Below the pieces are notes generated by a model. That model was not told where the DNA came from, did no database searches, and was given only the letters and a program-made list of their open reading frames with translations. The position numbers were made by a program, and so were the translations under genes. Positions 31,714-59,480 of a stretch of DNA of 64,000 nucleotides are shown piece by piece. The stretch lies in NCBI GenBank assembly GCA_048634345.1, contig JAIWAP010000001.1, forward strand, positions 48-64,047. The letters are read 5' to 3'. The DNA comes from Methanobacteriota archaeon. Its GTDB lineage: Archaea; Halobacteriota; Methanosarcinia; Methanosarcinales; Methanogasteraceae. Positions within the stretch are counted from its first letter, which is position 1. The number at the start of each line of letters is the position of its first letter.

Positions 31714-31749
31714 ACGATTTTTTCACAACGATTTTTTCACAAAAAATCG
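31714..31749. repeat. 14-bp direct duplication (ACGATTTTTTCACA x2) overlapping a perfect 9-bp-stem hairpin
   Basis: Direct copies at 31714-31727 and 31728-31741. Hairpin CGATTTTTT-CAC-AAAAAATCG at 31729-31749. Confidence 0.8.
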
Positions 31750-35900: not shown

Positions 35901-37594
35901 CAAGAACAATTCCAACAGAGGAGGCTTATGCGATCGGGAGAGAGACGATGGACGCGCTTCTTGTGGATTACTATGAGAGAAACGGCGAATTCCCTGAAAA
36001 GGTCGCATTCGTCCTCTGGGGAATAGAGACGATGCGCAATCACGGTATTCCTCACGCCCAGATGCTCTATCTCATGGGCGTTGAACCAATATGGAAGGCT
36101 GATGGCAAGATCCTCTATTACAGCAAGCCAAAAGTAGAGAATCTGAAAATAATCGACACATCCAATCTGACGATACAGTTGACCGATGGAACAGTGATCA
36201 CGCGTCCGAGAATTGATGTTATAGGTCACAGCTCTGGCTTGCACCGGGATCAGTTCCCATGGCAGATGAAGCTTCTTGACGATGCGGTCAGGATCGTTTC
36301 GCAGTTGAACGAGTCCGAGGATATGAACTATGTGCGGAAGCACTCCCTTGCGCTGAAGGCGTACTACATGGAACTTATGGAGTCCATGAATGTAACCGTG
36401 GACGAGGAAGAAGCCGAGAAGTTATCGATGTCACGACTATTCGGACCGCCTGAGGGCGATTACGGCGTAAGAATTGCAGATGCAACATGGGCAAGCGATA
36501 CATGGGAGAATACGGACCGGATTGCGGATCAATTCATCGAACGCTCAGGAAATGTGTATATTGATGGAGAAATGTATACAAGCCCCCTTATTTCAGGCGT
36601 AGAGGTCTTCAAAGCAGCCATAAAGGATACTGATATCTCAGTATTCATAAGAAGCAGCAATCTCTACGGCGTTCTGGACGGTGATGATCCGTTCCAGTAC
36701 TTCGGAGGATTGAGTCTGGCGATTGCCCGGGTAAGTGATGGTGAACGTCCTGAGATGTGGATAACGAATGCAAGGAATATCGGCAATCCACGGATGCAAA
36801 CGCTGAGCGAATTTATGAATATGGAGATGCGGACACGCATGTTAAATCCAAATTACATAAAGGGCATGATGGAGCACGGTTATGCCGGAGCCGGGAAGCT
36901 TTCAGACCATCTGGCGAACCTCTTTGGCTGGGATGTTGTGGATACGAGATTCGTTGATGCTGCCGACTGGAACGAGGTGTACGAGGTGTATATCCTGGAT
37001 AAATACGATCTCGGAACCAAAGACTGGTTTGATGAGAACAGTCCATGGGCACGTCAGGAGATGATGGCAAGAATGCTCGAAGCTGCACGGAAGGATTTCT
37101 GGGAGCCATCGGATGAACTGAAAGCAGCACTTGCCGAAGAATACCAGCAATCGGTCGAGAAATATGGGCCCTGCTGCTGTATGGTCTGCTGCGGAAATCC
37201 GCTGCTTGATACGTACATGAAGGATATAACAAAGGCATATTCAGAGTCTCCTCAGAGCAGCGGGACCTATTCGGAGCATCAGAGCAGCAGTAGCGGTAAC
37301 AGAGACAGCACATACCCGCCCGAGCCTTCCGAAGACGGGGCAACGAATCAGACGACAACGTCATCTTCGCGAGCAGGTGTCGGGATAACCGGAGATGTGG
37401 TGCCGGAGCCACCCGCGGAAACCAGCAAACCCAGCGATACCAGTGACGCCCCAGATACGGTTGAAGGACAGGTGATGACCGAGATGAAGACCTCTTCATC
37501 GCTGCCGATATCCGGTGCGCCGCTGATGGCAATCGTTGCGGTGGTTGCAATCCTCGGACTGATCGGTACAGGGCTATGGCTTAAACGCAAATAG
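32927..37594 (+). CDS. CobN/Mg-chelatase-H-family protein, predicted exported and C-terminally anchored (CobN-like 1)
   Basis: 1555 aa. CobN signature block ALDAKYIMPAVGGDVLRTPDVLPTGRNFYSFDPRTIPTEEAY. Signal-peptide-like N-terminus (PLLVAVLFMALLIVPLSATAQP) and many N-x-S/T sequons. C-terminal Cys cluster GPCCCMVCCGNP, then an S/T/P-rich linker, a hydrophobic helix and KRK. Confidence 0.85.
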   Translation: MTRNYMQDVRSFAPIPLLVAVLFMALLIVPLSATAQPEENRIIFVLGTDENKDSLYNASASTTLEVEIYNASVAMSKDFSNESVVFLASLDNETVSSINQTMNRSAHVFAYNLSSEIDIGNVVDVNITNYWEAGGDVRMLHLITYLGAKFYDLQTVDVLFILQEGTIHRYYLEEVMKEYTLANTTISLTIYNRDQAAENNLTSFDIIALYHVTYLPSVQTKLDEADNTSKTIWLSKSTSLWDVNVPQSTGKHAYDKYWTPSGIENHRRILTYLAVTLLDADEEIKPGINLPRSGIFHPDYKSEFQPCKDCLFQNLSSYMEWYTDTGKYHPENPTVGLTLSGYYYANGYYLDDWIAIVREFENRSVNVIPILDGTDIREFFFDETENATVDIVLSYMGTFHGSKAFNLSSISERKEVIARLGVPWLNCITTGQTPVEWANSTIGIPTSYIGWAVALQELEGLIEPIVIGGSVLDEITNSNMKIPIPGRASYVVNRTLMWTDLKYMNNSEKRIALIYYSYPPGKSEIGASYMDVPRTLEVLLNEMDGAGYDLGGNFTRYNISDRNDTLSNNGSIVAKLITQGRNIGAWAQDDVDELARSGAIVLVPEDDYLQWFNEFPDDMRDVVIKDWGEPPGDQMVYTAPNGSRYIVIPCIKYGNVLLAPQPYRGYQNSEKLLYHNSSLPPNHQYIAFYLWLKKGFDASALVHIGTHGTLEWLPGKQVGLDSRSWSEALIQDFPNPYIYIVDNVGEGTQAKRRSYSVIIDHATPPFIPSGLYGNYSNLHQAIHHYLLAKENGNAPLMSGYKNTSIGIIKDTHIDEDLGINISYDVSFDDFEAMVVAGPVHDYLHEMMYTNMPYGLRIFANPIPDESAVALVRGMLGDEYIQDIHAVNASCDSHDVEEFNKTESYRLLYRVLVDGVNITDAQNEILGNSSADVSADLAIAREYYQNILASSPNEIKSLLDALDAKYIMPAVGGDVLRTPDVLPTGRNFYSFDPRTIPTEEAYAIGRETMDALLVDYYERNGEFPEKVAFVLWGIETMRNHGIPHAQMLYLMGVEPIWKADGKILYYSKPKVENLKIIDTSNLTIQLTDGTVITRPRIDVIGHSSGLHRDQFPWQMKLLDDAVRIVSQLNESEDMNYVRKHSLALKAYYMELMESMNVTVDEEEAEKLSMSRLFGPPEGDYGVRIADATWASDTWENTDRIADQFIERSGNVYIDGEMYTSPLISGVEVFKAAIKDTDISVFIRSSNLYGVLDGDDPFQYFGGLSLAIARVSDGERPEMWITNARNIGNPRMQTLSEFMNMEMRTRMLNPNYIKGMMEHGYAGAGKLSDHLANLFGWDVVDTRFVDAADWNEVYEVYILDKYDLGTKDWFDENSPWARQEMMARMLEAARKDFWEPSDELKAALAEEYQQSVEKYGPCCCMVCCGNPLLDTYMKDITKAYSESPQSSGTYSEHQSSSSGNRDSTYPPEPSEDGATNQTTTSSSRAGVGITGDVVPEPPAETSKPSDTSDAPDTVEGQVMTEMKTSSSLPISGAPLMAIVAVVAILGLIGTGLWLKRK

Positions 37595-37768: not shown

Positions 37769-38368
37769 ATGGAAAGAAATAATACGGTAAATCTGCTGAT
37801 TGCAGCACTGGTAATGGCGCTCTTGATCGTGCCGCTGTCAGTGGCTGCAGAATCGGGAAACATTACCGCACTTGCGAATACGACCTCTGATGAGAACGGG
37901 AACTACACATTCACAAACCTCCCCGCAGGGGATTACGTCATAAACGTGGCATACTACACGCCCGCGATGGGTGGCAAATGGTTCACAGGGCGTACGTATA
38001 CCAGTGTCGGCGATGGAGAAGATCGAAGCGATGTTGAGGTATGTCTGACCTTCGGAAGCGAGGCGGATGCAAACAATATACGGAACGCAAGCATTGATTC
38101 GAGCAGCCCCTCTGGCACCTCAACGATCTCGGGGCAGACACTTGCACACAAGATGGGGGGCGAGGTTGTGGCGATGACGAACGCAACAGTTATCATAAGC
38201 AGCTACCTCAAGGGCGACCTCGATTGTGACGGTCGTCTCACGTCGATAGATGCGCTCATAGCCCTTCAGATGAGTGTTGGGTCTCGCGAATCTAACCATG
38301 TGGGCGACATGAATTTCGATGGGGCGGTCACATCGCTGGATGCGCTCATGATCTTACAGGCGGTGTAG
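37769..38368 (+). CDS. Secreted protein: CarboxypepD_reg-like module + type-I dockerin
   Basis: Signal-like N-terminus (LLIAALVMALLIVPLSVAAES). Module TSDENGNYTFTNLPAGDYVINVAY... Two dockerin EF-hand-like repeats, GDLDCDGRLTSIDALIALQ and GDMNFDGAVTSLDALMILQ (nt 38213-38365). Confidence 0.75.
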   Translation: MERNNTVNLLIAALVMALLIVPLSVAAESGNITALANTTSDENGNYTFTNLPAGDYVINVAYYTPAMGGKWFTGRTYTSVGDGEDRSDVEVCLTFGSEADANNIRNASIDSSSPSGTSTISGQTLAHKMGGEVVAMTNATVIISSYLKGDLDCDGRLTSIDALIALQMSVGSRESNHVGDMNFDGAVTSLDALMILQAV

Positions 38369-38373
38369 CCACG

Positions 38374-41300
38374 ATGAAAAAAAACACGCTAAACCGCGGC
38401 ATAACACCCATACTACTGATCGCAGCACTGATCGTGGCGTTTTCGGTTGTGCCGCTGCCCGCAACCGCACAACCCGGGAACATGACCGTGCTTGCGAAAA
38501 CGACCTCTGATGAGAACGGAAACTACACATTCTCCAATCTCACCACCGGAAATTACACGATCGACGTGGCATACTACACACCCGCGATGGGCGGCACATG
38601 GTTCACAGGAAGCACGAACGCCAGTTTGGGTGATTGCGAGGATCTCACAGGAACAGATGTGTGGCTCTCCTTCGGAAGTGAGGAAGATGCGATCGAGATC
38701 GTGAATGCGACAGTAAATTCGAGTGGCATGGCTGGCACTTCAACGATCTCAGGGCAGACACTTGCACACGGCATGGGCGGTGCGACGACTGTTATGACCA
38801 ATGCAACTGTCGTCCTGATAAAGGTGGACGAGTCAGGAGATGACGGCTCCGCCGATGATGATGACAGTGATCTGCCATTGGCAGATGGACTTGTTCTGCC
38901 AGCACCAAACATGGCAACCGGTGCGGACGGAGCGTTCGCGTTCACCAATCTGCCTGCAGGCAACTACACGATAACTGCGCTGTCCGGAGATGCGATCGGA
39001 AATATCAGCGTGGAAATGGGCGCAGGAGCGCACATAAGCGATCTTGAGATCTGGCTGAACGATACCGCTGACGGTGCGACTGCAGACGCCACCAGAAACG
39101 CGACATACAACAATTCGGGAGGCTCGTATGGCACCGGCTCAATCTCTGGCAGGGTGTGCAACATCACCACTGGAGACTCTGCTCTTGTCACAATCACGAG
39201 CTACACCGGAGATGGGAATCTCGGAAGCGTGAATATAGAGCCAAAGATGGTGTTCATCCTCTCATCACCTGGCGACGTCTTCTTAGCCAGAAAATCGGCG
39301 GCGAGCATCGGTCTGAATATAAGCGTGTACGATAGTCACGGAGTCCCTCCGGATCTCAATCTGACGACGTATGACGTGATCTTTGCAGTGCACCTGACAA
39401 CAAAATCGATCCAGGACGTGCTCGTGCCGCTGATTGAGGCTGCAAATGAGAGCGGCGTTACAGTGATCTGCACGGATCCTGACCACCTGACAAACGTCAA
39501 TCTCACCGAGCACCCATACATCATGGAGTACTGGGAGAGCCGCAACGATAGGAACATGGAACGACTTTTAGTCTATCTCGGTTGCAAGTTCTGCGGTCTT
39601 TCCGGTCTTATCGAAGAGCCGATAATCACTCCCGGCGACGGAATATACCATCCCGATGCTGATCCTGATACTGGCAGAGTCTTTGAGAACTTAACCGAGT
39701 ATCTCCAGTGGTACAACGAGGATGCCGGGGATCATCACGTCTACAATCCGGATAACCTGACAATAGGAATCGTATTCTGGAAGTCACGGTCCGGGACCGG
39801 TGAGATTGGTGTTGTGGACGCGCTCATCAGGGATGCAGAGGCGCGAGGAGCAAACGTAATCCCGGCATTCCAGCCATTCCTGCTCTTTGAAGAGAACCTG
39901 ACCATGATGTTTATGGATGGCAACGAGTCCGCTGTCGATGTCATGATCGATCTCGGGCTCGGGATGGGTCCGCTCACTGTGATGGTTAAGAAGCGGGAGT
40001 ATCTCGAACTGATGAACGTTCCTGTCATGAAATGCATCGAACTCTACACGACAATCGAGGAATGGGAGAACGAGACAACCGGAAAAGACGGTTACTTCAA
40101 TATGCAGATCCCGGTGATGGAGATTGCAGGCGAGATCGAGTTCATCGTTGTCGGCGGGAGGGTGTACAATGCGACATACAACGTCGAGATCATTGAGCCA
40201 ATCGACTATCAGATAGAGTGGGCTGTCGATCGTGCACTCTCGTGGGGCAGTCTGCGTCACACAGAGAACAGCGAGAAGAGGGTTGCGATCCTCTACTATC
40301 ACCACTCCGTTGGAAACGGAAGCGCTCTTGCCGCAGCAAATCTCGATGTTGCGCCAAGCATCGTTAACATCCTTCATGCGATGAATGATTCGGAACAGGG
40401 CTACACACTCGGCGATGAGATACCGACTGATAAGGAACTCCTGGATATGGTGCTCTCGCAAGGCAGGAATATCGGGGTATGGGTTCCTGACCAGATCAAG
40501 AATGTCGCTGAGAACTATGATGTTGCGCTCGTTTCAGAGGAGGAGTACCTGACATGGTTCGAGAAACTTCCGGAAAAGAAGAGAAACGAGGTTACGGCGC
40601 GGTGGGGCGAGCCTCCTGGCAGGATCATGGTCTATGAGAACGAATCCGGCAAATACCTCGTGATTCCGAAGATAACGCTTGGAAACATCTTGATTGCGCC
40701 GCAGCCATCACGCGGGGCAGAGCAGAATATGACCGCTCTTTACCATGATCAGTCAGTTCCGCCGACGCATCAGTACATCGCATTCTACTACTGGCTGAAC
40801 CACGTCTATGAGGCTGATGCTATCGTTTCGATGGGCAGGCACGGAACACAGGAATGGTTGCCCGGAAAAGGCGTTGGCTTGTCAGTGAGGGACTGCTGGC
40901 CCGCAATCTTGATTCAGGATATGCCTGTTGTGTACCCCTACGAGGTGGAGGGCGTCGGAGAAGGTATCGTTGCGAAGAGGCGGGGCAGTGCAGTCATGAT
41001 CGACCATCTGACACCCGTTATCGTCGCAGCAGGGCTCTACGGGAATCTATCGAATCTTGAACAGACGATACCGCTCTACGAGCAGGAAGAGAACGGCACG
41101 CTCAAGGAGAAGTACAGAGAGCAGATTATGGATATGTGCCGCGACCTGAATCTCGGCTGGGATCTGGGCGTTGATCTGGATGAGATCGCTGCATCGAACG
41201 ACACCGTCTTTGAGGAGTTTCTCGAGGAGGTGCACGACTATCTCCTTGAGATTAAGAGGGAGTACATGCCTTACGGCTTACATATCATGGGCAAGCAGCT

Positions 41301-43680
41301 CTCCAACGATAGTCTCGTGGATATGACCAAATCGATTCTTGGTTATGATTTCAGAGAGTACATCGAGAAGACAAACATTACCGAGAACCAGACGAGAATG
41401 CTCCTCTGGGAAGTTATTGTCAACGAAACAACTCCTGATGATGCGCAGAAGAGTGTGCTTGGGTGGTCAGAGAACGCAACCGATCCTGAATCAGGAAAAA
41501 GGGTAGTTGCGAAGACAATCTCCGATGAGAACGGAAACTACACGTTCTCCAATCTCACCGCCGGAAATTACACGATCGATGCGGCGTACTACACCCCAGC
41601 GATGGGCGGCACATGGTTCATTGGAAGCAACGACACGAACCTGAACGATGGAGAGCATCCGGACGGGCTCGACGTGTGGCTAACATTCGGAAGCGAGGAG
41701 GATGCGCTTGAGATTGTGAATGCAACCGTTGATTCAGGCGGCGTCTCTGGTACTTCGACGATCTCGGGGCGGACGCTTGCTGAGGGCATGGACGGAGTGA
41801 TGACGATGGATAACTCAACAGTCGTCCTGCGCAGAACGGATTCAGACGAGGAGCCGGCAGAGACGCCACTCACAGACTTCCTGAACCTCGCAATCGAGTA
41901 TGCAGATAACCTCCGGGACTGCGAAATCGAGATACCAAAGACGCTTGATGCACTCGAAGGAAAATACATCATGCCGGGACCGAGTAACGATCCGATCAGA
42001 AACCCGGATGTGCTGCCGACCGGCAGGAACTTCTATGGCTTCGATCCGAATATCGTGCCGACCGAGGCTGCGTGGGAGGTTGGGTGCGAACTGATCGACC
42101 AGTTGCTCTCGTTGTATTCGAACGGAACCGACGAGAGCTACCCAAAGAAGGTCGGATTTGTCCTGTTTTCAGCCAATACGATGAAGGACCTGGGCGTGCT
42201 CGAGTCAGAGATATTTTACCTCCTTGGTGTGGAGCCGGTCTGGGACAACAGCAACAACATCCACGATGTCAAGCTCATACCAACAGAGAAGCTTGGGAGA
42301 CCGAGAATCGATGCCGTTGTCACGATGAGCGGCATATACCGGGAGAATTGGCCCCGCCAGATCGAACTGATCAACAAGGCGGTTCGCTTAGCCTCTGAAG
42401 CGGATGATTTCCCGCATCACCGGAACTTTGTCAATGAGAGCACCCAGCGGACATACGACTGGTTAATCGAGCACAATTACACCGAAGAACAGGCGCGGGA
42501 TCTCTCGTTGATCCGGATCTTCGGACCTCCAGAGGGCGTCTGGGGTGTCGGCGGACTCACATCAGCGATCGCCGGAACCGGCACGTGGGACAGCGAAGAA
42601 ACGATAGCAGACCTCTACATCAGGAATATGGCTAATGTGTACGGCGACACGATCTGGGGCGAGCAGTACGTCGATCTCTTCAAGCAGAATCTCGCTGGGA
42701 TCGAGGTTGCGGTCTTTAGCTGGACATCGCATTCCCACAGCGTGCTTGGAATCGATCACACCTTCGAGTTCTTCGGGGGCTTAAGCATGGCGATCCGAAG
42801 CGTATCAGGTGAGTCGCCTGATATGTATATTAACAACCTCAAGAACCCTGGCGGCGCAAAACTGGAGACGCTGCAGCACGTCTTGATGAGGGATCTGCGT
42901 TCGATGTACTACAACGAACTCTGGATCAAGGGTATGATGGAGCATGGCTACGCAGGTGCAGGATCGATGTCTACGATCATGTCAAACCTCTGGGGCTGGC
43001 AGGTCACAAACCCGGACATCATAACCGACGAGATGTGGAATACGATGTACTCGATCTATATGCAGGACGAGTACGATCTTGGGCTTACGGATTGGCTCAA
43101 TGAGAACAATGCGTGGGCACGCCAGGAGATGATGGCACGGATGATTGAGTCGACACGGATGCTTGATTCCGAAGGAAACCCGTACTGGAATCCATCCGAT
43201 GAGATAAAAGCGGCTCTTGCACAGGAGTACCAGCAATCGGTCGAGAAATACGGACCCTGCTGCTGCATTGTCTGCTGCGGAAATCCGATGATTGATACGT
43301 ACGTGAAGGGGCTGCTTCAGCCGGGCGCAGAACCCGGGCATCAGAGCAGTAGCAGTAGCAGTAGCAGCGGAAGCGGCACATATCCTGCAGACTGGAGTAA
43401 AGCGGATGCGGGCGCAACGAATCAGACAGAAACATCGTCGCAATCGTCGTCTTCGCCAACAGGTGTCGGGATAACCGGGGATGCGGTTCCGGAACCACCA
43501 TCGGAAACCAGTAAGCCCAGTGACGCAAGCGACGCTCCGGATAAGGTCGAAGGAAAAGTGATGACCGAGATGCAGACATCATCCTCGCTGCCGATATCGG
43601 GTGCACCGCTGATGGCGATCGTTGCGGTGATCGTGATCCTCGGACTGATCGGCTCAGGGTTGTGGCTTAAACGGAGATAG
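38374..43680 (+). CDS. CobN/Mg-chelatase-H-family protein, predicted exported and C-terminally anchored, with three CarboxypepD_reg-like modules (CobN-like 2)
   Basis: 1768 aa. CobN block ALEGKYIMPGPSNDPIRNPDVLPTGRNFYGFDPNIVPTEAAW. Signal-like N-terminus (ILLIAALIVAFSVVPLPATAQP). Two N-terminal modules and one mid-protein module, GPCCCIVCCGNP, a poly-Ser/S-T-P linker, a hydrophobic helix and KRR. Starts 5 nt after the dockerin gene stop. Confidence 0.85.
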   Translation: MKKNTLNRGITPILLIAALIVAFSVVPLPATAQPGNMTVLAKTTSDENGNYTFSNLTTGNYTIDVAYYTPAMGGTWFTGSTNASLGDCEDLTGTDVWLSFGSEEDAIEIVNATVNSSGMAGTSTISGQTLAHGMGGATTVMTNATVVLIKVDESGDDGSADDDDSDLPLADGLVLPAPNMATGADGAFAFTNLPAGNYTITALSGDAIGNISVEMGAGAHISDLEIWLNDTADGATADATRNATYNNSGGSYGTGSISGRVCNITTGDSALVTITSYTGDGNLGSVNIEPKMVFILSSPGDVFLARKSAASIGLNISVYDSHGVPPDLNLTTYDVIFAVHLTTKSIQDVLVPLIEAANESGVTVICTDPDHLTNVNLTEHPYIMEYWESRNDRNMERLLVYLGCKFCGLSGLIEEPIITPGDGIYHPDADPDTGRVFENLTEYLQWYNEDAGDHHVYNPDNLTIGIVFWKSRSGTGEIGVVDALIRDAEARGANVIPAFQPFLLFEENLTMMFMDGNESAVDVMIDLGLGMGPLTVMVKKREYLELMNVPVMKCIELYTTIEEWENETTGKDGYFNMQIPVMEIAGEIEFIVVGGRVYNATYNVEIIEPIDYQIEWAVDRALSWGSLRHTENSEKRVAILYYHHSVGNGSALAAANLDVAPSIVNILHAMNDSEQGYTLGDEIPTDKELLDMVLSQGRNIGVWVPDQIKNVAENYDVALVSEEEYLTWFEKLPEKKRNEVTARWGEPPGRIMVYENESGKYLVIPKITLGNILIAPQPSRGAEQNMTALYHDQSVPPTHQYIAFYYWLNHVYEADAIVSMGRHGTQEWLPGKGVGLSVRDCWPAILIQDMPVVYPYEVEGVGEGIVAKRRGSAVMIDHLTPVIVAAGLYGNLSNLEQTIPLYEQEENGTLKEKYREQIMDMCRDLNLGWDLGVDLDEIAASNDTVFEEFLEEVHDYLLEIKREYMPYGLHIMGKQLSNDSLVDMTKSILGYDFREYIEKTNITENQTRMLLWEVIVNETTPDDAQKSVLGWSENATDPESGKRVVAKTISDENGNYTFSNLTAGNYTIDAAYYTPAMGGTWFIGSNDTNLNDGEHPDGLDVWLTFGSEEDALEIVNATVDSGGVSGTSTISGRTLAEGMDGVMTMDNSTVVLRRTDSDEEPAETPLTDFLNLAIEYADNLRDCEIEIPKTLDALEGKYIMPGPSNDPIRNPDVLPTGRNFYGFDPNIVPTEAAWEVGCELIDQLLSLYSNGTDESYPKKVGFVLFSANTMKDLGVLESEIFYLLGVEPVWDNSNNIHDVKLIPTEKLGRPRIDAVVTMSGIYRENWPRQIELINKAVRLASEADDFPHHRNFVNESTQRTYDWLIEHNYTEEQARDLSLIRIFGPPEGVWGVGGLTSAIAGTGTWDSEETIADLYIRNMANVYGDTIWGEQYVDLFKQNLAGIEVAVFSWTSHSHSVLGIDHTFEFFGGLSMAIRSVSGESPDMYINNLKNPGGAKLETLQHVLMRDLRSMYYNELWIKGMMEHGYAGAGSMSTIMSNLWGWQVTNPDIITDEMWNTMYSIYMQDEYDLGLTDWLNENNAWARQEMMARMIESTRMLDSEGNPYWNPSDEIKAALAQEYQQSVEKYGPCCCIVCCGNPMIDTYVKGLLQPGAEPGHQSSSSSSSSGSGTYPADWSKADAGATNQTETSSQSSSSPTGVGITGDAVPEPPSETSKPSDASDAPDKVEGKVMTEMQTSSSLPISGAPLMAIVAVIVILGLIGSGLWLKRR

Positions 43681-45059: not shown

Positions 45060-45394
45060 GATCAACCCGGAAGCGGATCGTTCTGGACGACGAGGAGGAT
45101 CCGCTGGGTGGCGTTGCAAACCTCTTTGATGCCGCGATGGTCTTTGCTGTCGCGCTCCTTGTTGCGCTTGTTGTCTCCTACAACGTGCCGGAACTGCTTG
45201 ACGCTGATGCGAGCGTAACAATCGTCAAGAACCCGGGAGACCCGAATATGCAGGTGATAATCAAGGATAAGGAGACGATAAAGGTTATGAATATGACCGA
45301 GCAGCTCATGGGTGGTCAGGGGTCAAAGATCGGGACTGCGTACCGGCTGGAGACCGGAGAGGTGATATATATGCCCGAGAATGAGACCGGATGA
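45056..45394 (+). CDS. Small single-TM protein, ExbD/TolR-analogous position (DUF2149-like)
   Basis: A GTG start at 45056 overlaps the MotA-like stop (GTGA). Layout: basic N-terminus, one TM helix (LFDAAMVFAVALLVALVV), then a ~70-aa extracytoplasmic tail. The family name is from memory. Confidence 0.55.
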   Translation: MRSTRKRIVLDDEEDPLGGVANLFDAAMVFAVALLVALVVSYNVPELLDADASVTIVKNPGDPNMQVIIKDKETIKVMNMTEQLMGGQGSKIGTAYRLETGEVIYMPENETG

Positions 45395-45494
45395 TGACTG
45401 CTGCCGTCGAATACAGATGCTACCGAAATGTTGAGCGCCAGCGGTATGTAAAGCATCGGTGAGGTGTGGTATCGTCGAAGGTATTGTGAGTTAA

Positions 45495-45885
45495 TGGAGG
45501 TGGGGCACTAAGCAAAACAACATTAGAACACGTAAGGAGCAGAAATTCCGGAGTAAAAACGCTTCGAGCTACGATCAGTCAATGATAGGAAGATACTGGA
45601 AGATCTATCCGTCCCCCCTCGATAAGATCTCCAGTGATCTTGGGACCGGAGGCACTGTACTCGAGGTTGCAACCGGAACCAGGTCTCGTTGCGCTGAAGA
45701 TAGCAAGCGCAGCAGATCATGTTCATGCGATAGACATCTCGCCGCAGATAATTGATGTCGCAAAGAAGAAGGCAGAAGAGAGCGGAATCGATAACGTGGC
45801 GTTCTCGGTGGTGGATGCGTGTGCCATGCCTTATGATGGCGGCATGTTTGATACGGTTATCTGTAAATGCGCTCGCATAATATGA
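45495..45885 (+). pseudogene. Class-I SAM-dependent methyltransferase, frameshifted and 3'-truncated
   Basis: ...YDQSMIGRYWKIYPSPLDKISSDLGTGGTVLEVATGT then a frameshift to GLVALKIASAADHVHAIDISPQIIDVAKKKAEESGIDNVAFSVVDACAMPYDGGMFDTVIC. It ends prematurely (KCARII*) and has no start codon after the upstream stop. Confidence 0.65.
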
Positions 45886-45955
45886 AACATCCGGGAGATT
45901 GCGTTATCGAAAAATTTCGGAAGTAGGGGTCACTTCCGGTTATCTTTAAAAGTCC

Positions 45956-46012
45956 GGTATGAGCATCTGTCGCTCTTGTGTTCATGGTCAGATTGACCAT
46001 TACAAAAAAAAT
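45956..46012 (+). repeat. Dispersed intergenic repeat family 'C', copy C2
   Basis: GGTATGAGCATCTGTCGCTCTTGTGTTCATGGTCAGATTGACCATTACAAAAAAAA contains the perfect hairpin ATGGTCA-GAT-TGACCAT followed by A8. Confidence 0.75.
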
Positions 46013-46038
46013 CAAAAAAGGCGAATTCCGATGTTATC

Positions 46039-47001
46039 TTATCTCATTCGCCTTGCCATGTATGCTGCTATACCTGCAACGGTCAGCAACATCGCCCCAA
46101 ATCCGGGTGTGGCATCTTCTCCAGTTGCCGCGCCTTCCTCTGGCGCTGCCGCCGTCTCTGTTGTCTCTGCCGTCCCGGTTGGTTCGGTTGTTGCAGCCGG
46201 TGTGGCAGTCATATCCGGAGCCACTGTGGCACTGCTTGAAGGGTGGCAGACCGAACAGTCCAGTCCGCGCTGCGTCGGCGGTACCACCGTGATCAGGTGC
46301 AGCCCTGTCAGGTTATGGCAGTTGCTGCACGGGGGCAGGATTACCTTGCCCTCTGGCATGTGGCAGCCATCACAGGTTGCCAGATCCGGCAGATGAATCA
46401 GGTGCGGAATCACGTCCGGTTTCAGCTCCCGTTCTTCAGTGTTGCCTTCAGGTCTGTGGCACATGTAACAGATCGATGAATCGGTCTCTTCACCGTGAAG
46501 ATGCACCAGATCGTCATACGCGTGGCAATCCTGACACAGGATGGTCACTCCGGCGTGCTGGACCGGCTTCACGATGTTTGGCGCGGTCTTGTGGCAGGCT
46601 TCGCATCCGTTATGCACATCCACGAGATCACGGTGGCAGTGTGCGCACACTGTAGTGTCAAGGATCTCGCTGTTGTGGTGTGTGTTGATATCACCATGGC
46701 AGTACGAACAATCCTCGGTCTTCACCTTTGCGATGTGTGCATCATGAATCGTGCCGCCGTGGCAGTTTTCACACTGCGGGATCGCAATCTCCAGTGCCTC
46801 TCCGTGACAGGCTTCACAGGTCACCCGGTTCTGATTCATCACCTCTTCATGGAGGGTGTGTGGTGACCCGGGGTGACACTTTGTACAGTCAACATCCTGG
46901 GTCTTCAGTGCGAGCGTATCAAACTGCACCTCAGAAAAAACCATCGGGATGCTTGAAATCAGCAGAATAAGCGTTGAGAGCAATATCAGTGTTTTTCTCA
47001 T
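46039..47001 (-). CDS. Multihaem c-type cytochrome (11 CxxCH) with PGF-CTERM archaeal sorting signal
   Basis: Signal peptide MRKTLILLSTLILLISSIPMVFS. 11 CxxCH motifs counted. A T/P/A/E-rich linker is followed by ATPGFGAMLLTVAGIAAYMARRMR at the C-terminus. Confidence 0.85.
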   Translation of the reverse strand: MRKTLILLSTLILLISSIPMVFSEVQFDTLALKTQDVDCTKCHPGSPHTLHEEVMNQNRVTCEACHGEALEIAIPQCENCHGGTIHDAHIAKVKTEDCSYCHGDINTHHNSEILDTTVCAHCHRDLVDVHNGCEACHKTAPNIVKPVQHAGVTILCQDCHAYDDLVHLHGEETDSSICYMCHRPEGNTEERELKPDVIPHLIHLPDLATCDGCHMPEGKVILPPCSNCHNLTGLHLITVVPPTQRGLDCSVCHPSSSATVAPDMTATPAATTEPTGTAETTETAAAPEEGAATGEDATPGFGAMLLTVAGIAAYMARRMR

Positions 47002-47556
47002 GCATTCACCTCTTAAATCACAATCGATTGGCAGATTGTAACCATAAGGTCTCCGCGTCTATGTATATATTGGTTTCCCACCGCATGACCCCTCCACCCA
47101 CCACAAAAATCCTGTCAGATCTCTGAGTAGTATCACTCGCTCATCAGCGAATGATTATTCTGATGGTAGGATACTTCTATTTCCCTCCTTTACACATTCT
47201 ACATCAGCAATGATAGTGTCCAAGCAAACAAACCACAAATATATTTAAGTCCATCCACCATAAGTTAATAATTATGTTTGAGGTAAATGGACGGAGTTTT
47301 ACAACTCCAGAGGCACACACACCTTCAGGACATATAAACATTGCCGAAAACAAGCCGATATTCGCAGTGAATAAGATTCTCTTGGCGAGAGAATGGCTAC
47401 CCCTAACAGGCAACACATTGCCATTCAGCCTGATTCCAGGGGATATCATCGCTCTAATAAAGGAGAATCTATCCGTTGAAGAAGCGGTGGATTTGATCGG
47501 TGGAAGAGCCGAGGAATCCGTAATTCAGGAAATAGTGAGAGAAGCACCATTCCTTT

Positions 47557-48000
47557 TTATGATACGCTTGATTGTTGCCAAGCTCGGAGCCTCATCTTCC
47601 GAATAGCCAAGTTCATGCATCCGAAACTGTATCTCATCAGCGGAAATAGCAACGATACTTTGTGTCTTCGGTTTTTCCTTCCATCAGCGACTTCCGCACG
47701 TTCACCACGAGTTGTTCCATCTCTGAATCTATCTTTCTGCGAACATTCTTCGGTTGCTCTCTGATTCATCCCTAAACCACTCCCTCTTACTGCTTTTATC
47801 GAAATTGTCGTATCTTCTGATCCACTTTCGCAGCCATACCCTCGATCTGCCAAGACTTTTGCAGATTTTGGAGGGGCGTTCACCCCTCTGATATCGATTG
47901 ACCGCATACGATTGGGCTCTTGTTCCTCTTCCGTGTACGGTTCGTTTGATTTCGCCATGACACATCATCGGATGCATCACGGCTTTTTGACGCTCAAATC
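47557..48000 (-). pseudogene. N-terminal (HTH) remnant of an IS630/IS481-type transposase, multiply frameshifted
   Basis: Pieces in three frames: ...YQRGERPSKICKSLGRSRVWLRKWIRRYD..., ...KTQSIVAISADEIQFRMHELGYSEDEAPSLATIKRIIKRNG... No catalytic domain was recognisable downstream. Confidence 0.4.
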
Positions 48001-48090
48001 TCCAAAATTGTAAACGATGTGTTGAGCCTTTCCAGATAACTTTTTGAGATGACCCGTCCAACCGATGCATATCTACCGTACAGGAAGTGA

Positions 48091-49227
<1,137 letters not shown>

Positions 49228-51932: not shown

Positions 51933-52050
51933 TTCTTATCTCGCACCCAGAAAGATGAAGACGTCCACAAAGAGCACCGCAAAGCTGACCATGAGGATGC
52001 GCAAGCCCCACGTGAGCCAGCGCTGCTTTGTATCCGCTATTTTCTCGAAA
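51933..52050. repeat. ~118-bp direct repeat, copy A (3' end of the membrane-protein gene)
   Basis: Aligns with 55842-55960 at roughly 80% identity by eye (…CATCTCGCACCC.AGAA.GATGAA…AAAGAGCACCGCAAAGC…GCGCAAGCCC..CGTGAGCCA.CGCTGCTTT…). Confidence 0.8.
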
Positions 52051-52393
52051 TGCGCCTTCGCATCCTCTGGGTCGTCAGGATGAACCGTATACGGTCTTGT
52101 CGCAAGCACCATCGCCGCGCAGCCAATGACCATAAGCCAGAGCAGAACCGGCGCAGAGAAGAGGATTGCGAGCAGCCAGTGTTGAGCGGCATTCTCTGCC
52201 GCGCCAGACACGACCCGGGGTCAGCAAAGGACAGGGCGTGGAAATAGACGCCCTCAATGAAGCTTGCCGCCAATATTAGATGCTTTGCGCTTCCCTCGAT
52301 CGAGGATATGGACCCCTTCGCCATCTCAAGCATGACGTTCTTCCAGAATAGATCCTCGGGCTTGGGCGGTCTGCCGCTTATCTCATCGGTCAT
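51936..52393 (-). pseudogene. Small membrane protein, interrupted by a single-base frameshift in a CCCCGGG run (last gene of the ATPase-TPR operon)
   Basis: Frame 1 reads MTDEISGRPPKPEDLFWKNVMLEMAKGSISSIEGSAKHLILAASFIEGVYFHALSFADPG. Frame 2 reads (V)SGAAENAAQHWLLAILFSAPVLLWLMVIG...KQRWLTWGLRILMVSFAVLFVDVFIFLGAR. The span is 458 nt (3n+2). Its ATG overlaps the upstream stop (ATGA). Confidence 0.6.
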
Positions 52394-52580
52394 AGATAAA
52401 TCTCATTCTCTGCATCGCAGTAAGGGCAGGTTTTGAGGAGGCGCTTCTTCTCATCTCTCGGTTCTGCCGATGTTGATGGCGTCTCTCCTCTGTATATGGT
52501 TATAGCAGGATTTGCGCCTGATGCGGAGATCGTGAATTTTTCCGGCAGTTCCAGCACCTGATCACTACTTCGTCACTCAT
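52390..52580 (-). pseudogene. ~63-aa zinc-ribbon protein, interrupted by a single-base frameshift in an A5 run
   Basis: Own translation: MSDEVVIRCWNCRK | (K)FTISASGANPAITIYRGETPSTSAEPRDEKKRLLKTCPYCDAENEIYL. This gives CxxC...CxxC. The span is 191 nt (3n+2). Its ATG overlaps the TPR gene stop (ATGAGTGA) and its stop overlaps the next ATG (ATGA). Confidence 0.5.
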
Positions 52581-54549
52581 CTGCGGTGGTCATCTCCTCG
52601 TAGTATTTGTCGAAGAGTGCATCACCTATCTCTTCTTTTAGAGTTGCTATGAGTCGTCCTGCCAAATCCTTGTACGGTGAATCGAGTTCATAAAATATCG
52701 CGGAAGCATTGTGGTAACATCTCAAAGCTTCTTTGTAATTTCCTTGTGCCTGGAAAATCCGTCCCATCTGTCCGATGGAGATTGCTATCCCGCTTCTGTT
52801 CCCCAGTTCTTCTTCTATCTTCAGGCTCTCCTGATACTTCGCAACAGCCTCATAGTACCTGCCCTGTGCATAGTGCACATTTCCCAGCTGGTGGAGTGTT
52901 CCCGCTATCCCGCGTCGGTCTCCCAGTTCTTCTTTTAGCTTCAGGCTCTCCTGATACTTCGCAACAGCCTCCTCGTACCTGCCCTGATCATAGTGCACAT
53001 TTCCCAGCTGGTGGAGTGTGCTTGCTGTCCCGCGCTTGCCCCCCAGTTCTTCAAATATCTTCAGGCTCTCCTGATACTTCGCAACAGCCTCCTCGTACCT
53101 GCCCTGTGCCTGATGTATCATTCCAAGCTGGTGGAGTGTGCTTGCTATCCCTTTTCTGTCCCCCACTTCTTCAAATATCTTCAGGCCCTCCTGATACTTC
53201 GCAACAGCCTCATCGTACCTGCCCTGCAGGTAGTGGATATCTCCTAATCGGCGTACGGAAGCCGCGGTTCCCTTACCATATCCGATTCTTTTAGAGATTT
53301 CAAGCACCCTCAAATAGACTCGTCTGGCATCCCTGTAGCGACCAGCATTTGAATACACATCACCTATTTTAAAAAACAAGGTAGAACTGTCCCGGATCAT
53401 CTCATGATCTGCTTCACACGCATTTTCCAGATCCCCTTCTGCTCTCCGAACGTCACCGGTTCCTAAGTATCCAAAAGCCCTGAACACCAGTGCCTTACTC
53501 CGCACACTCTCGTCACTTTCAACCAATAGAATCTTGTTTTCCGCCTCTATTAATTTTTCAGGATCGTTTAGCATTTCTTCTGGCAGTCCCATCCCCGATA
53601 ATTCTGATTCGATGTCCCAGAGCTCAACTACAAATGATATATCCTCTCTTGCATCCTGCATCCGCATCATTGGCTCGGGTTCTCCCTGCCATGGTTCCAG
53701 AGTCTCCATCAACGCCTTGTAGTCGTCTCTGAGCCCCTCGTCTTCGATGCCATCGATGATTGTTCCAAAACTTCTTTCCATGATGCGAGGATCTTTTAAA
53801 GCTTTCAAACTATGTGAAGGTATCATTTCGCCATGGTATACACGAACGAAACCTTTCGACTCCAGACATTCAATAGCTTCATCGTCCATCTCTTCCGACT
53901 TCAAAAACATTAAAACAGACTTTAACTCGTTTGCATCAAGTTTGGATAACTTTTTTCTCAAAATATCAGCAATGGCATCTTTTACCGCTATCTCCACCCA
54001 TGTCCCATCCAGAAGCCGTCTTGTAGCACTGTCAAAGAATTCGACCACATCTATCGGGTCTTCAAAAGTCTTTAGTGCGATCAAAAACGGAAAATTCTTG
54101 AACAGTTTGGGATCCACCACCTTTCTCTTAAATATAGCAGATCGGACTGCGTTGTATGCGGTTTGTTTCATCTTGTCGAGCCATTTTCTGTTTACTTTCC
54201 CGGCTGCTTTCGATCGCACATCGATTACGGTTATCAGCGATTTAAACCACCGTAGGTTCTTATACACCTCTTCAAGCTCATTTTCAGACTTCACGCTTAT
54301 ACAAAGGACTGTTTTCTCATCCAATTTCACATCTTTGATTTCAGAGATTTTCCCACTCTTTATGTCAATTTCAGTCCAATCAACCCACAACAATCTTGGA
54401 TTGTGATCTCTAAATCCATATACGAGCATGTTCAGTATTTCAGACTTTCTATCATCCTGAATATCATAAGGAAGTGTCAGAGGGTCTCCCAAGTCAGTTT
54501 TACTAAGTTTGAATTCGGATAAACCCATTGGCTGGAATATTTCAATCAT
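52573..54549 (-). CDS. Protein with unknown ~370-aa N-terminal region and C-terminal TPR array (TPR_12/KLC-like)
   Basis: 658 aa. Five to six near-identical 42-aa units (GRYEEAVAKYQESLKIFEELGDRRGIASTLHQLGNVHYAQ). The ATGA overlap with the upstream ATPase gene lies at 54546-54549. Confidence 0.8.
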   Translation of the reverse strand: MIEIFQPMGLSEFKLSKTDLGDPLTLPYDIQDDRKSEILNMLVYGFRDHNPRLLWVDWTEIDIKSGKISEIKDVKLDEKTVLCISVKSENELEEVYKNLRWFKSLITVIDVRSKAAGKVNRKWLDKMKQTAYNAVRSAIFKRKVVDPKLFKNFPFLIALKTFEDPIDVVEFFDSATRRLLDGTWVEIAVKDAIADILRKKLSKLDANELKSVLMFLKSEEMDDEAIECLESKGFVRVYHGEMIPSHSLKALKDPRIMERSFGTIIDGIEDEGLRDDYKALMETLEPWQGEPEPMMRMQDAREDISFVVELWDIESELSGMGLPEEMLNDPEKLIEAENKILLVESDESVRSKALVFRAFGYLGTGDVRRAEGDLENACEADHEMIRDSSTLFFKIGDVYSNAGRYRDARRVYLRVLEISKRIGYGKGTAASVRRLGDIHYLQGRYDEAVAKYQEGLKIFEEVGDRKGIASTLHQLGMIHQAQGRYEEAVAKYQESLKIFEELGGKRGTASTLHQLGNVHYDQGRYEEAVAKYQESLKLKEELGDRRGIAGTLHQLGNVHYAQGRYYEAVAKYQESLKIEEELGNRSGIAISIGQMGRIFQAQGNYKEALRCYHNASAIFYELDSPYKDLAGRLIATLKEEIGDALFDKYYEEMTTADE

Positions 54550-55763
54550 AACTTCTTGAAGAAAACAAATTCCGGCGCAATCTTGTAGTATCGTGGTTTG
54601 TAAATGTCGTTTGGGATCAGAACCCCACGTTCACAGAGCCTTTCGAAAAACCCTTCTGAAAACTCCCTCTTCAGAATGTCCTCCTTTCCTTTATAGTTAT
54701 TGTCTTGCTCCAAGAAGAATTTGATTATTTTTTCCAACTCTCCTGGCAAAAAATCAGAAAAATGTGTATCGGTGTACCTTTTGAGGTCTTCTACTGCTGT
54801 TTCAGGATTTAAACTGGTGTTGTTGCATAGAAACTCAATCCAGGTAAGAACAGCAAGAGGATTTCCAGTCAGCGTTTTGAGAATATCTACTACTTCGAAT
54901 AATCGCGCCTCATCAATACCAGCTCTATCGTCTTTATCGCAGACTTCCAATCGTTTTCTAATAATCTCGATCAATCCAGCCCCATCAAGCTCTTCCACCG
55001 GAATTATTCTGCGGAAATCCCGGCGCAATTCGTTAGAAAGCGCCTCTGTTCGCACTGTTATTACCACAATTGGCTTTTTTATCGCAAGTAAACTCTTCAA
55101 GAAATCCGAAATCGTATCCTTTTCATATACTTGGTCTAAATTGTCGATAAAGAAGAGAAACTTCTGCTCCGCTCCTATGTTCTTGATGACCGAATTCAAG
55201 AGGTCTCGAAGGAATGGTACGTTGATATCGAACTCATATTCATCAGAAACTTCTTCACTCTTCGCAATTTCATCTGTTATGCCTAGTTTCGCTTTCAAGA
55301 AAGGTACTATCCCAGTTCCAATCTCAATGCCACTCTCGATCTTCGTACCCTTCATAATAGAGAGCGCATTTCTCCGGGTTATCTTGCTCTTTTCCACGAT
55401 GTCTTCGATGTAAGCAGCCTCTGCGAACAGTCTGCTTCCGTCGTCCCTGAACCTATCTCTCAGCGCACCGCACATCGTCCTGCAGAGGTTCTTGAGCAGT
55501 TCAAGCTCATCCCGGCATTCACGACCGTCAATTTCGACGAGAATGAAATCCCCTTCCTGATGGAGTTCCCTCAAAACCTTTCTGAAGAGGATGGATTTGC
55601 CAACACCCCTCTCGCCAGTCCCGAGGAATCTTATGCCCTCTATCCCTTTCGCTTTGATGGCGGTGGCGATCCTGCGTTTCAAATCCACCCTCAGTTCATC
55701 CCGATCTGCAAAAAGTTCAGGTTCTAGCCCCTCGGGTCTCAAGCACTCGGTATAGTAATACAT
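54546..55763 (-). CDS. P-loop NTPase, archaeal-ATPase (Arch_ATPase/ATPase_2, STAND-like) family
   Basis: FADRDELRVDL opening, Walker A GERGVGKS, Walker B KFLFFIDNLDQV, C-terminal helical/wHTH-like part. Confidence 0.75.
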   Translation of the reverse strand: MYYYTECLRPEGLEPELFADRDELRVDLKRRIATAIKAKGIEGIRFLGTGERGVGKSILFRKVLRELHQEGDFILVEIDGRECRDELELLKNLCRTMCGALRDRFRDDGSRLFAEAAYIEDIVEKSKITRRNALSIMKGTKIESGIEIGTGIVPFLKAKLGITDEIAKSEEVSDEYEFDINVPFLRDLLNSVIKNIGAEQKFLFFIDNLDQVYEKDTISDFLKSLLAIKKPIVVITVRTEALSNELRRDFRRIIPVEELDGAGLIEIIRKRLEVCDKDDRAGIDEARLFEVVDILKTLTGNPLAVLTWIEFLCNNTSLNPETAVEDLKRYTDTHFSDFLPGELEKIIKFFLEQDNNYKGKEDILKREFSEGFFERLCERGVLIPNDIYKPRYYKIAPEFVFFKKL

Positions 55764-57692: not shown

Positions 57693-58631
57693 TCAGATCG
57701 GTGCATGCCCGTTCGTGTGACAGGTCATACAGTCAACGTCCACGACGATGTCCTTGTGCGCATCAGCATGGCAGTCGACACATTCCTTTGCTCCGGTGTG
57801 CTCGATGTGACAGTCGGTGCAGTTCAACTTCGCATGTTCGGTCGGATATGCGATGAACTCATCCTTAGTGTCTTCGTGGCACAACATGCACTTCTCGCTG
57901 GTCACGATCGCACCGAACTTGATCACGGTCGGAGCATGTGGGTTATGACAGACCTGACAGTCCGCCAGTCCTGATCCGTGTTCAATCCCATGACAGTCCA
58001 GACATGTCATGGATTCGGCATGATCCTTGTGACAGGAGTAGCATCCGTCTCCGATCAATGGCGCATCATAACTGTATGTCGTCGGACTCAGCGTGTATCG
58101 TCGAGCCTCATAGCTGGTGTCCTTCGTCGCATGTCCGCCACCGGATGTGATGAACTCGGTATACTGGGTCTCATGGCAGTCAGCACAGCCATAGCTGGTG
58201 TCTGCGGCGTGGGCAGGATGACAATCCCTGCAGTCGCCTTCTGCCAGTTCGGTGGCATGGTGGTAATCGCCATGGCATATCCTGCACTCTGTATACATCG
58301 GCGCAACAGGTGTGTTATGGCAGCGTATGCATTCGGTGGGTATCATTCCCTCGTGTAACTGCACGCTCTCCGGTGCCTGGGATTTCGCAAGGTCCCTGAG
58401 GCACTTCCCGGAATACGGCTCAGCACGTTCTCCTCTCTGGTCAGGAACGATCGCATTGAATACAGCGGGCCATATACCAGTCCCTGCCATCTCCTGAGTA
58501 TACTCAGGATTATGACAGCCACCACACTGCTGCATCTCGATCGATGCGTCTGAGTCATAGACGATAATCGAGATAATGACCAACCCAAGAACCATCAGCA
58601 TCAGCACGGCAAATAATTGAGTTTTGTTCAT
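57693..58631 (-). CDS. Multihaem c-type cytochrome (12 CxxCH), N-terminally membrane-anchored
   Basis: Start set at MNKTQLFAVLMLMVLGLVIISIIVY (ATG at 58631, with GAGGAA upstream). 12 CxxCH motifs counted. Confidence 0.85.
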   Translation of the reverse strand: MNKTQLFAVLMLMVLGLVIISIIVYDSDASIEMQQCGGCHNPEYTQEMAGTGIWPAVFNAIVPDQRGERAEPYSGKCLRDLAKSQAPESVQLHEGMIPTECIRCHNTPVAPMYTECRICHGDYHHATELAEGDCRDCHPAHAADTSYGCADCHETQYTEFITSGGGHATKDTSYEARRYTLSPTTYSYDAPLIGDGCYSCHKDHAESMTCLDCHGIEHGSGLADCQVCHNPHAPTVIKFGAIVTSEKCMLCHEDTKDEFIAYPTEHAKLNCTDCHIEHTGAKECVDCHADAHKDIVVDVDCMTCHTNGHAPI

Positions 58632-58719
58632 GGTAGGTTCCTCAACATTATCATAAGATGATAGTAAACACACCAAATTCCTATAAATATGTTTCGGCAT
58701 TTGCCACCAGATTGAAGTA

Positions 58720-59480
58720 ATGTTTGATCGCAAATATGCTGATATGGACTTTGAAGAACTGCGCAATACCCTGAAACAGGAGCAGAAATCGAAACTCGCA
58801 AAACTCGAGCCTGACTTTTATGAAAGTGTGCGCACGTATCTTGATGGGCTTCGTGAGGAGCAGAAAACAGCCTCTGGCAAAGAAGCCCAGTTTCTTGCAG
58901 ACGAACTTGAGACCGCAAGCGATCGTTTGCAGCGCATCTTCAATCTACGGATCGGAAAGATCGTTAATCTTGCGTCCTTGAGCATAATGGGTGAGATTGG
59001 TGGCATCAAGCATGACATCGATATGATGACGCAAATTGAGCATGGCATCTATGATTCGGTGCTTGGTGCGGTGCGGCAGGGCTGGAGTGCGGTTGAACAG
59101 ACGATTGCTGGTGAGTCGGTTGCAACGGGGGCAGCAGTTGCACCATTGCCCCTGTTACTCCAGTTACTCCAGTTACATCGGCTGCACATGTCCCGCCTGT
59201 CGAGTCGGTCACATCGGTGCCAGAAGAGGTAGCCAATAGACCATCTGAAGATGCGGGAGGGGTTGGGGGGGTTGAAGTGGTTGAAACAGTGAATTCCAGC
59301 GCACCGGATGGTTACACAATCGTGCGCGTGCTAAAGAACATCCCCACCTTCGTGGGCACGGATAGCTGCCATTACACCCTTGCAAAGAACGATGTGGTGA
59401 CGCTGCCCGACCTTCATGCAAAGGTGCTGTGCAAGCGAAGGGCGGTGCTGCCGGTTGAGATATCCTCCGAGTCCGGGTGA
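58720..59480 (+). pseudogene. GINS subunit (Gins51/Gins15-like), split by a frameshift most plausibly at the G5 run in the inter-domain linker
   Basis: A-domain: MDFEELRNTLKQEQKSKLAKLEPDFYESVRTYL...RIFNLRIGKIVNLA. B-domain in the +2 frame: GYTIVRVLKNIPTFVGTDSCHYTLAKNDVVTLPDLHAKVLCKRRAVLPVEI. The +2 frame opens after a stop at 59109-59111 and the G5 run lies in the following stretch. It may be a sequencing artefact. Confidence 0.7.

Follow-up and report, generated by a model that had tools for sequence, protein, structure and literature searches.

An eleven-haem c-type cytochrome of an ANME-2c archaeon, probably a lineage-specific copy of McoB from the proposed methanophenazine-cytochrome c oxidoreductase

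Introduction

In anaerobic methanotrophic (ANME) archaea of the ANME-2a/b groups, a cytochrome with 7-11 haem motifs is encoded behind a VhtC-like cytochrome b, and the pair has been named methanophenazine-cytochrome c oxidoreductase, or Mco; in ANME-2c the homologous cytochrome is located elsewhere in the genome (Chadwick et al., 2022, PLoS Biol, PMC9012536). The family of the cytochrome c subunit, McoB (also called 'AmcB' in S3 Data of that article), sits at the least understood step of the pathway, the exit of electrons from the methanophenazine pool. Here we describe an 11-haem c-type cytochrome gene in a 64,000-nucleotide stretch of DNA (hereafter the window) from contig JAIWAP010000001.1 (GenBank assembly GCA_048634345.1, forward strand, positions 48 to 64,047), which probably encodes McoB in its ANME-2c-specific copy. 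The family was already described and named in 2022, the window gene being its orthologue in another ANME-2c species, and the published picture is unchanged by our findings. Relative to the parts of PMC9012536 that concern Mco, we add a PGF-type tail in nearly all homologues, distal His ligands for all 11 haems, the sister relationship of the two ANME-2c copies, and the nature of the ANME-2c-specific copy (here called clade A) as a single-gene unit that changes its location among genomes. The ligand set, the tail, the apparent duplication within ANME-2c and the portable promoter-to-terminator unit may help in expressing or modelling Mco.

Compared with McoB as PMC9012536 describes it, the window protein has the same lineage, carries 11 motifs and is unlinked from cytochrome b, as in ANME-2c, and nothing essential differs. 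Small ANME multihaem cytochromes with PGF-CTERM motifs are also described there. The best-known carriers of PGF-CTERM are substrates of archaeosortase A (ArtA), e.g. the Haloferax volcanii S-layer glycoprotein (TIGR04126; Haft et al., 2012, via PMC5244752); the window protein shares with them the three-part C-terminus and a preceding Thr/Pro-rich linker, but its tail scores below the model threshold, its cargo is a multihaem cytochrome and not an S-layer protein, and processing of the tail is, as in any ANME protein, a prediction. In role, McoB is analogous to quinol dehydrogenases of the CymA/NapC-NirT type and to the decahaem MtrA/DmsE of Shewanella, which are membrane-associated, pass electrons from a lipid-soluble carrier pool to outer cytochromes, and have the same dense packing of bis-His haems. 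The window protein belongs to neither DmsE (TIGR03508, 22.8 bits vs a cut-off of 192.2) nor NrfH (15 vs 134); the anchor of CymA/NapC-NirT is N-terminal whereas that of McoB is C-terminal, and the McoB host, unlike Shewanella, is an archaeon with an S-layer and without an outer membrane. OmcZ of Geobacter sulfurreducens (PDB 7lq5, 8d9m) is likewise an extracellular electron-transfer cytochrome, but its likeness to McoB is local and centred on haem motifs: OmcZ has 8 haems, is secreted and polymerises, whereas McoB has 11 haems and lacks the combination that defines OmcZ (8 motifs with conserved non-haem N- and C-terminal regions).

Results

A word-indexed search of 5.8 billion proteins returned only 25 relatives of the window cytochrome, all unnamed or labelled 'cytochrome c3 family' and all from metagenome-assembled genomes (MAGs) of Methanosarcinales, ANME-2 or Methanoperedens. 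When 185,579 species genomes were scanned, 80 loci emerged, with ANME-2c MAGs nearest at 84-92% identity (CSMAG_2052, 92%; ANME-2c-GOS, 90%); a full-length orthologue at 70% identity in Ca. Methanogaster E20 (ANME-2c; locus L012) was among them. The same ANME-2c genomes also contribute a second group, at 40-45% identity, and other groups belong to Ca. Methanocomedens (ANME-2a), ANME-3-type Methanosarcinaceae and Ca. Methanoperedens (homologue ANME2D_00864). The protein search and the genome scan together limit the family to ANME-2a/b/c/d and ANME-3-type Methanosarcinales, and the source of the window is an ANME-2c (Methanogasteraceae) archaeon. A preliminary description of the window, made without database searches, had held that the gene constrains lineage and lifestyle, which the distribution of the family bears out, and had connected it with extracellular electron transfer, which is the published reading of the family (PMC9012536). 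The gene can serve as a reliable marker of ANME-2c methane-oxidising origin with extracellular electron-transfer capacity. Where that description saw a generic surface redox protein, it missed the named family, McoB, which places the protein at the methanophenazine-to-cytochrome step.

An exhaustive hidden Markov model search of 1.84 billion representative sequences yielded only ~9 full-length clusters at 50% identity, followed in the list by giant proteins. The possibility that McoB is a module of these giant cytochromes (1000-3600 aa, with many matched stretches) was rejected: BLAST alignments against two of them had ~25% identity, were gappy and were repeated along the length, so the likeness is a repetitive one at the level of CxxCH only.

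The assignment to McoB runs through E20. In S2 Data of PMC9012536 (sheet S11 Fig), the entries for ANME sp. E20 under 'McoB (cyt c)' are PXF61810.1 and PXF56222.1, and its McoA is given as PXF61052.1. By exact look-up, PXF61810.1 falls in the 90% cluster of the E20 orthologue in L012, and PXF56222.1 represents E20 in the 40%-identity group (L040) and is thus the second E20 paralogue. The window protein is homologous to McoB through L012/PXF61810.1, and its 11 motifs fall within the published range of 7-11. ANME-2c has two unlinked McoB paralogues, of which the window gene is the ANME-2c-specific one. In a neighbour-joining tree, which is distance-based and carries no support values, clade A and the second ANME-2c group (the one with PXF56222.1) are sisters, and the window protein therefore looks like the product of a duplication within ANME-2c. 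The published linkage to cytochrome b was recovered independently in the ANME-2a/b-type clade: in 11 loci the homologue is preceded on its own strand, at a distance of ~130-200 nt, by a 275-aa ORF (open reading frame) matching Pfam Ni_hydr_CYTB (35.4 bits; cut-off 30.1), so that the synteny with cytochrome b covers 11/12 loci of that clade.

A different arrangement was observed in seven Ca. Methanoperedens loci (L036, L037, L045, L054, L076, L079 and L084), where a conserved block lies divergently upstream of the McoB homologue. It contains c17, c18 and c9 in that order in 7/7 loci, with c16 also present in 6/7; judged by eye, c9, the gene next to the homologue, may resemble glutamate-1-semialdehyde aminomutase (HemL, tetrapyrrole synthesis).

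The features of the cytochrome gene and its flanks are collected in Table 1.

Table 1. Coordinates in the window of the cytochrome gene, its protein regions, its putative expression signals and the flanking remnants.
Feature	Position	Strand	Remarks
Cytochrome ORF	46039..47001	-	complete, 320 aa + stop; ANME-2c-specific ('clade A') paralogue of McoB, 11-haem c-type
Signal peptide, residues 1-23 (MRKTLILLSTLILLISSIPMVFS)	46933..47001	-	predicted cleavage before E24; read from sequence, regions kept in homologues
Haem domain, residues 24-253	46243..46932	-	11 CxxCH + 11 invariant distal His
Linker, residues 254-298	46108..46242	-	45 aa, low-complexity, T/P/A/E/S-rich
C-terminal sorting/anchor tail, residues 299-320	46042..46107	-	PGF + hydrophobic helix (GAMLLTVAGIAAYMA) + RRMR
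BRE/TATA-like promoter element GAAACCAATATATAC	47063..47077	-	~62 nt upstream of ATG; putative promoter function
Shine-Dalgarno-like AGAGGTGA	47006..47013	-	4 nt upstream of ATG; GAGG core invariant in 10 clade-A loci
Oligo-T tract TTTTTTGATTTTTTTT	46004..46019	-	20 nt past stop codon; likely archaeal terminator, putative function
Truncated methyltransferase remnant (S-adenosylmethionine-dependent), 83 aa	45634..45885	+	profile positions ~8-71 of ~95-97 only (central domain part)
Transposase-type helix-turn-helix (HTH) fragment	47729..48103	-	HTH_23 30.3 bits (cut-off 24.6); in 1.1 kb upstream gap

The architecture agrees with the preliminary description of a secreted, C-terminally anchored 11-haem c-type cytochrome with 11 CxxCH motifs, a predicted signal peptide, a T/P/A/E-rich linker and the tail as quoted there. 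A regular-expression search placed the 11 CxxCH motifs at residues 39, 62, 77, 98, 119, 133, 156, 178, 210, 225 and 249; they contain 22/22 Cys of the protein and give a density of ~21 residues per haem. The count is not a compositional accident, because only one further ORF of the window has two or more motifs (57693-58817, 12 motifs). Pfam models Cytochrom_c3_2 (46.2 bits; cut-off 25) and Cytochrome_C7 (41 bits; cut-off 24.8) match the protein, and the plus-strand ORFs that overlap the gene are shadows of it. The N-terminus, MRKTLILLSTLILLISSIPMVFS followed by EVQ, reads as a Sec signal peptide, with a basic n-region (MRK), a hydrophobic core and V-x-S at -3/-1 (VFS before E24); homologues have V/A-x-A before E at the same cleavage position.

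Ligand conservation was examined in an alignment of 79 sequences, in which 33/33 CxxCH motif residues are invariant in 79/79. Exactly 11 His residues outside the motifs are also invariant in 79/79 (H48, 51, 86, 89, 109, 121, 130, 169, 200, 203 and 235), while the three other His and every Met vary, leaving no conserved Met. Eleven invariant distal His for 11 haems argue for bis-His coordination throughout and for a pure electron-transfer protein, so that each of the 11 haems is probably an electron-transfer centre with bis-His ligation. Among 82 complete homologues, 66 have 11 CxxCH motifs and 16 have 10. In the 16 sequences with 10, the first motif aligns with all three motif residues kept, and a four-residue spacing (e.g. 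CTSACH) is seen in aligned relatives, consistent with the count of 10.

The linker, PSSSATVAPDMTATPAATTEPTGTAETTETAAAPEEGAATGEDAT, is 45 aa long, against a range of 33-62 aa across all five McoB clades; in clade A, T/P/A/E/S residues account for a fraction of 0.76. Behind it, at the extreme C-terminus, lies the tail PGFGAMLLTVAGIAAYMARRMR, with the three parts of a PGF-CTERM signal (PGF, hydrophobic helix, basic cluster) following a Thr/Pro-rich linker. PGF or PGY stands at this position, with helix and basic end, in 80/82 complete homologues, and 13 clade-A relatives have PGY in place of PGF. Across the family, 26/36 tails match TIGR04126 at E<=10 (best E 2.4e-5) and 27 match the Heimdall-CTERM model. 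The window tail itself matches weakly the C-termini of S-layer glycoproteins that depend on ArtA and of an ABC-transporter binding protein anchored through PGF; Pfam has no match on it. Assignment of the tail to the PGF-CTERM family is reasonable, and the haem domain would be tethered to the outer membrane face by the flexible linker whether the tail is lipidated or kept as a helix. Another candidate PGF-CTERM substrate of the lineage is a PD40/WD40-like beta-propeller protein ending in STPGFGWMVSAGMVMLLYLLARRAA, encoded in an ANME-2c MAG (L005:5717-6745).

Comparison with the loci of other ANME-2c species showed that DNA similarity is confined to 46001-47086, from ~35 nt below the stop codon to ~85 nt above the start codon. 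Within this interval, the string GAAA(C/G)CAATATATAC of the promoter element is invariant in 10 clade-A loci, and the sequence farther upstream is unrelated between loci. The element occurs once in the window, against 0 expected by chance. Downstream of the gene, a hairpin followed by a T-run is found at 45918-45938. An Rfam scan of 45300-48200 gave no match, and a scan for sigma-70 promoters gave hits at chance level, which is irrelevant for an archaeon. The restriction of similarity to the promoter-to-terminator interval, together with the invariant promoter element, indicates that the cytochrome gene is an autonomous, singly transcribed unit.

Along the window, the cytochrome gene comes after flavodoxin (32231-32674, minus strand), two secreted CobN-like proteins, a dockerin protein, DUF2162, ExbB, DUF2149 and the truncated methyltransferase; the latter sits between DUF2149 and the cytochrome gene, and is seen also in L002. 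Upstream of the cytochrome gene, a 1.1 kb gap that holds the transposase HTH fragment is followed by SepCysS and ArgRS. Clade-A orthologues occupy at least six different neighbourhoods, mostly housekeeping. When the window neighbours (CobN x2, DUF2162, ExbB, DUF2149, SepCysS, ArgRS and others) were searched for across 84 loci, they were found beside McoB only in the conspecific contigs L001 and L002 and, in a different arrangement, in L021.

Three side observations concern these flanks. A different ANME-2c MAG carries, immediately downstream of the other McoB paralogue, a sequence (L049:7909-8235) that shares 83% identity with window positions 47709-48039, which overlap the HTH fragment; the stretch may be a shared mobile-element remnant. 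The CobN-like proteins and the dockerin protein (199 aa) between them lie at 32927-37594, 37769-38368 and 38374-43680 on the plus strand; both CobN-like proteins are very large, with predicted signal peptides and prealbumin/CarboxypepD_reg-like domains, and their C-terminal tails are near-identical (SSSLPISGAPL + helix + KRK/KRR) and not of the PGF type. The arrangement has the look of CobN-like machinery assembled outside the cell, with DUF2162/ExbB/DUF2149 next in order. In L021 (another ANME-2c MAG), a paralogous DUF2162-ExbB-DUF2149 cluster (7266-9967), 37-58% identical to that of the window, lies upstream of the McoB orthologue.

Discussion

We favour, with somewhat better than even confidence, the reading that this is the gene for McoB, proposed as the cytochrome c subunit of Mco in ANME-2, in its ANME-2c-specific copy. 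On this reading the pre-protein would be exported via Sec and would receive 11 haems, every one predicted to be a bis-His low-spin electron-transfer centre. It would be anchored in the membrane by a transmembrane helix or, after putative processing by archaeosortase A, by a lipid anchor, and the flexible linker of ~45 residues, probably glycosylated, would keep the compact haem domain above the membrane. Electrons derived from methane oxidation would pass from reduced methanophenazine to McoA, a VhtC-like di-haem cytochrome b whose gene lies elsewhere in ANME-2c genomes, and on to McoB. Across the pseudo-periplasm, OmcZ-like and S-layer multihaem cytochromes would take them over from McoB, and the sulfate-reducing partner would be the final recipient. 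We infer the interaction of McoA with McoB in ANME-2c, as well as the direction and partners of electron flow.

Transcript data from E20 given in S3 Data of PMC9012536 put 'AmcB (cyt c)' at 6.95, a value whose paralogue is unspecified there. This high value exceeds that of most methanogenesis-pathway genes given there, such as Mtr (~5) and Fwd (~4-5), with only Mcr (9.2-10.1; McrA 10.1), Mer1 (7.73) and Mtd (7.15) higher; Fpo is at ~4, and the highest value for any multihaem cytochrome there is 7.23, near that of AmcB.

Several observations, the unspecified paralogue just mentioned among them, weigh against the assignment of the gene to Mco. No cytochrome b gene lies within the window, in agreement with the published state of ANME-2c. 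McoA adjoins McoB in no ANME-2c, ANME-2d or ANME-3-type locus examined, and the pairing of the two is therefore drawn solely from ANME-2a/b synteny; the searched literature held no biochemical or other experimental work on Mco and nothing on it beyond PMC9012536. An AlphaFold2 model from a 26-sequence alignment had a mean pLDDT of 49.5 and a pTM of 0.22 (predicted local distance difference test and predicted template modelling score, respectively) and was unusable for haem geometry. The window tail scores 8.1 bits (E = 2.1) against TIGR04126, below the cut-off of 24.5, so that the word 'canonical' in the preliminary description was too strong for its PGF-CTERM, although the three-part architecture is present and conserved. 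Genes for ArtA and for cytochrome c maturation (ccm) are absent from the window. Among ANME genomes, archaeosortase A domains have been reported in ANME-2a and ANME-2d, a coverage outside which ANME-2c falls (PMC5244752), and 'Most ANME genomes contained CcmABCEF' according to PMC9012536.

The principal competitor to Mco, possible but distinctly less probable, is that the clade-A paralogue works without McoA, either as a CymA-like oxidase or as a tethered relay in its own right. In the first case methanophenazine would be oxidised directly by way of a retained C-terminal helix, as quinol is by CymA; in the second, a general membrane-tethered 'periplasmic' shuttle would carry electrons from several membrane complexes to the outer multihaem cytochromes. 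The monocistronic gene with its own putative promoter, found beside cytochrome b in none of the ANME-2c, ANME-2d or ANME-3-type loci, would suit such a role, and a CymA-like possibility for small anchored ANME multihaem cytochromes is raised in PMC9012536; ANME-3-type genomes, moreover, have the homologue, and for them S2 Data of the same article gives McoB with no McoA entry. The helix, however, sits behind a 45-residue disordered linker, has no conserved polar or His residues for a lipid-soluble carrier, and would be lost altogether if ArtA cleaves the tail, and the strict synteny with cytochrome b in ANME-2a/b (11/12 loci of the clade) speaks for a partner. The same tail bears on a very improbable alternative, a 'nanowire' cytochrome that, like OmcZ, is secreted, polymerises and has its C-terminal tail removed in processing. 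The best solved-structure matches of the family profile are indeed OmcZ chains (7lq5, E 8e-5; 8d9m, E 2e-4), and a haem-rich extracellular matrix exists in ANME consortia (PMC5947290), but the match consists of two short CxxCH-centred stretches at 25 bits, the haems number 11 and not 8, true close homologues of OmcZ exist separately in ANME-2c, and the conserved anchor tail favours retention at the membrane.

The neighbourhood raises a further question. The preliminary description had placed the cytochrome beside the CobN-like machinery and a flavodoxin, and had offered functional coupling, for example in reductive metal mobilisation, as pure speculation; the gene does adjoin the DUF2162/ExbB/DUF2149 and CobN cluster, but the flavodoxin is ~13 kb away. 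That the cytochrome feeds surface electrons to the CobN-like/DUF2162/ExbB/DUF2149 machinery for reductive mobilisation or uptake of Co, Ni or Fe has hardly any probability in our judgement. In its favour stand the adjacency in the window and the paralogous DUF2162-ExbB-DUF2149 cluster ~1.1 kb from the clade-A orthologue in L021, with no such cluster elsewhere in the remaining ~1 Mb of loci examined. Yet the adjacency is missing from the other clade-A contexts (~18 loci). In the window the genes are convergent with the truncated methyltransferase between them, and in L021, which has no CobN in the locus, they are divergent with deoxyhypusine synthase between. The L021 adjacency is probably due to chance. 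Transposase and pseudogene remnants flank the cytochrome gene in the window, where the CobN adjacency looks like the product of local rearrangement, and the conserved partner of the family elsewhere is cytochrome b. With the neighbourhood unconserved outside conspecific contigs, a promoter and terminator of its own predicted for the gene, and gene remnants on its flanks, coupling to the CobN-like cluster or the flavodoxin is therefore unsupported, and the adjacency should not be used to infer function. A broader variant, that clade-A McoB is no redundant duplicate but is sub-functionalised, independently transcribed and repeatedly relocated as a second electron exit, possibly to ExbB/DUF2149/DUF2162-type (and CobN-like) machinery, is highly unlikely as well; the relevant observation is that a clade-A copy lies at most 2.5 kb from ExbB/DUF2149/DUF2162-type clusters in two arrangements in two species.

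Other features of the window

The second multihaem cytochrome of the window (57693-58631, minus strand) is 312 aa long from an ATG at 58631; it carries 12 CxxCH motifs and an N-terminal signal anchor but lacks an anchor at the C-terminus. It adjoins an NAD kinase gene, and its family is small, with eight clusters at 66-87% identity followed by distant matches that include Desulfobulbaceae.

The minus strand encodes, at 52573-55763, a KAP/AAA NTPase of 405 aa together with a 658-aa TPR protein and, at 59891-63244, a single protein of 1117 aa that combines SIR2, STAND NTPase and TPR. A weak PycTM match lies at 51936-52211. The KAP/AAA and SIR2-STAND-TPR arrangement looks like a defence island.

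The segment 51684-51922, apparently non-coding, has counterparts in unrelated contexts of other ANME-2c MAGs, at L016:3278-3513 (90% identity) and L020:4345-4460 (78% identity), and may be a short dispersed repeat or a small element. A 75-nt tandem repeat (2.3 copies, 91% matches) occupies 31748-31917, between the ribosomal protein S15 and flavodoxin genes, and an intact ISAzo13-type DDE transposase (PF07592, E 1e-140) is encoded at 387-1610 on the plus strand.

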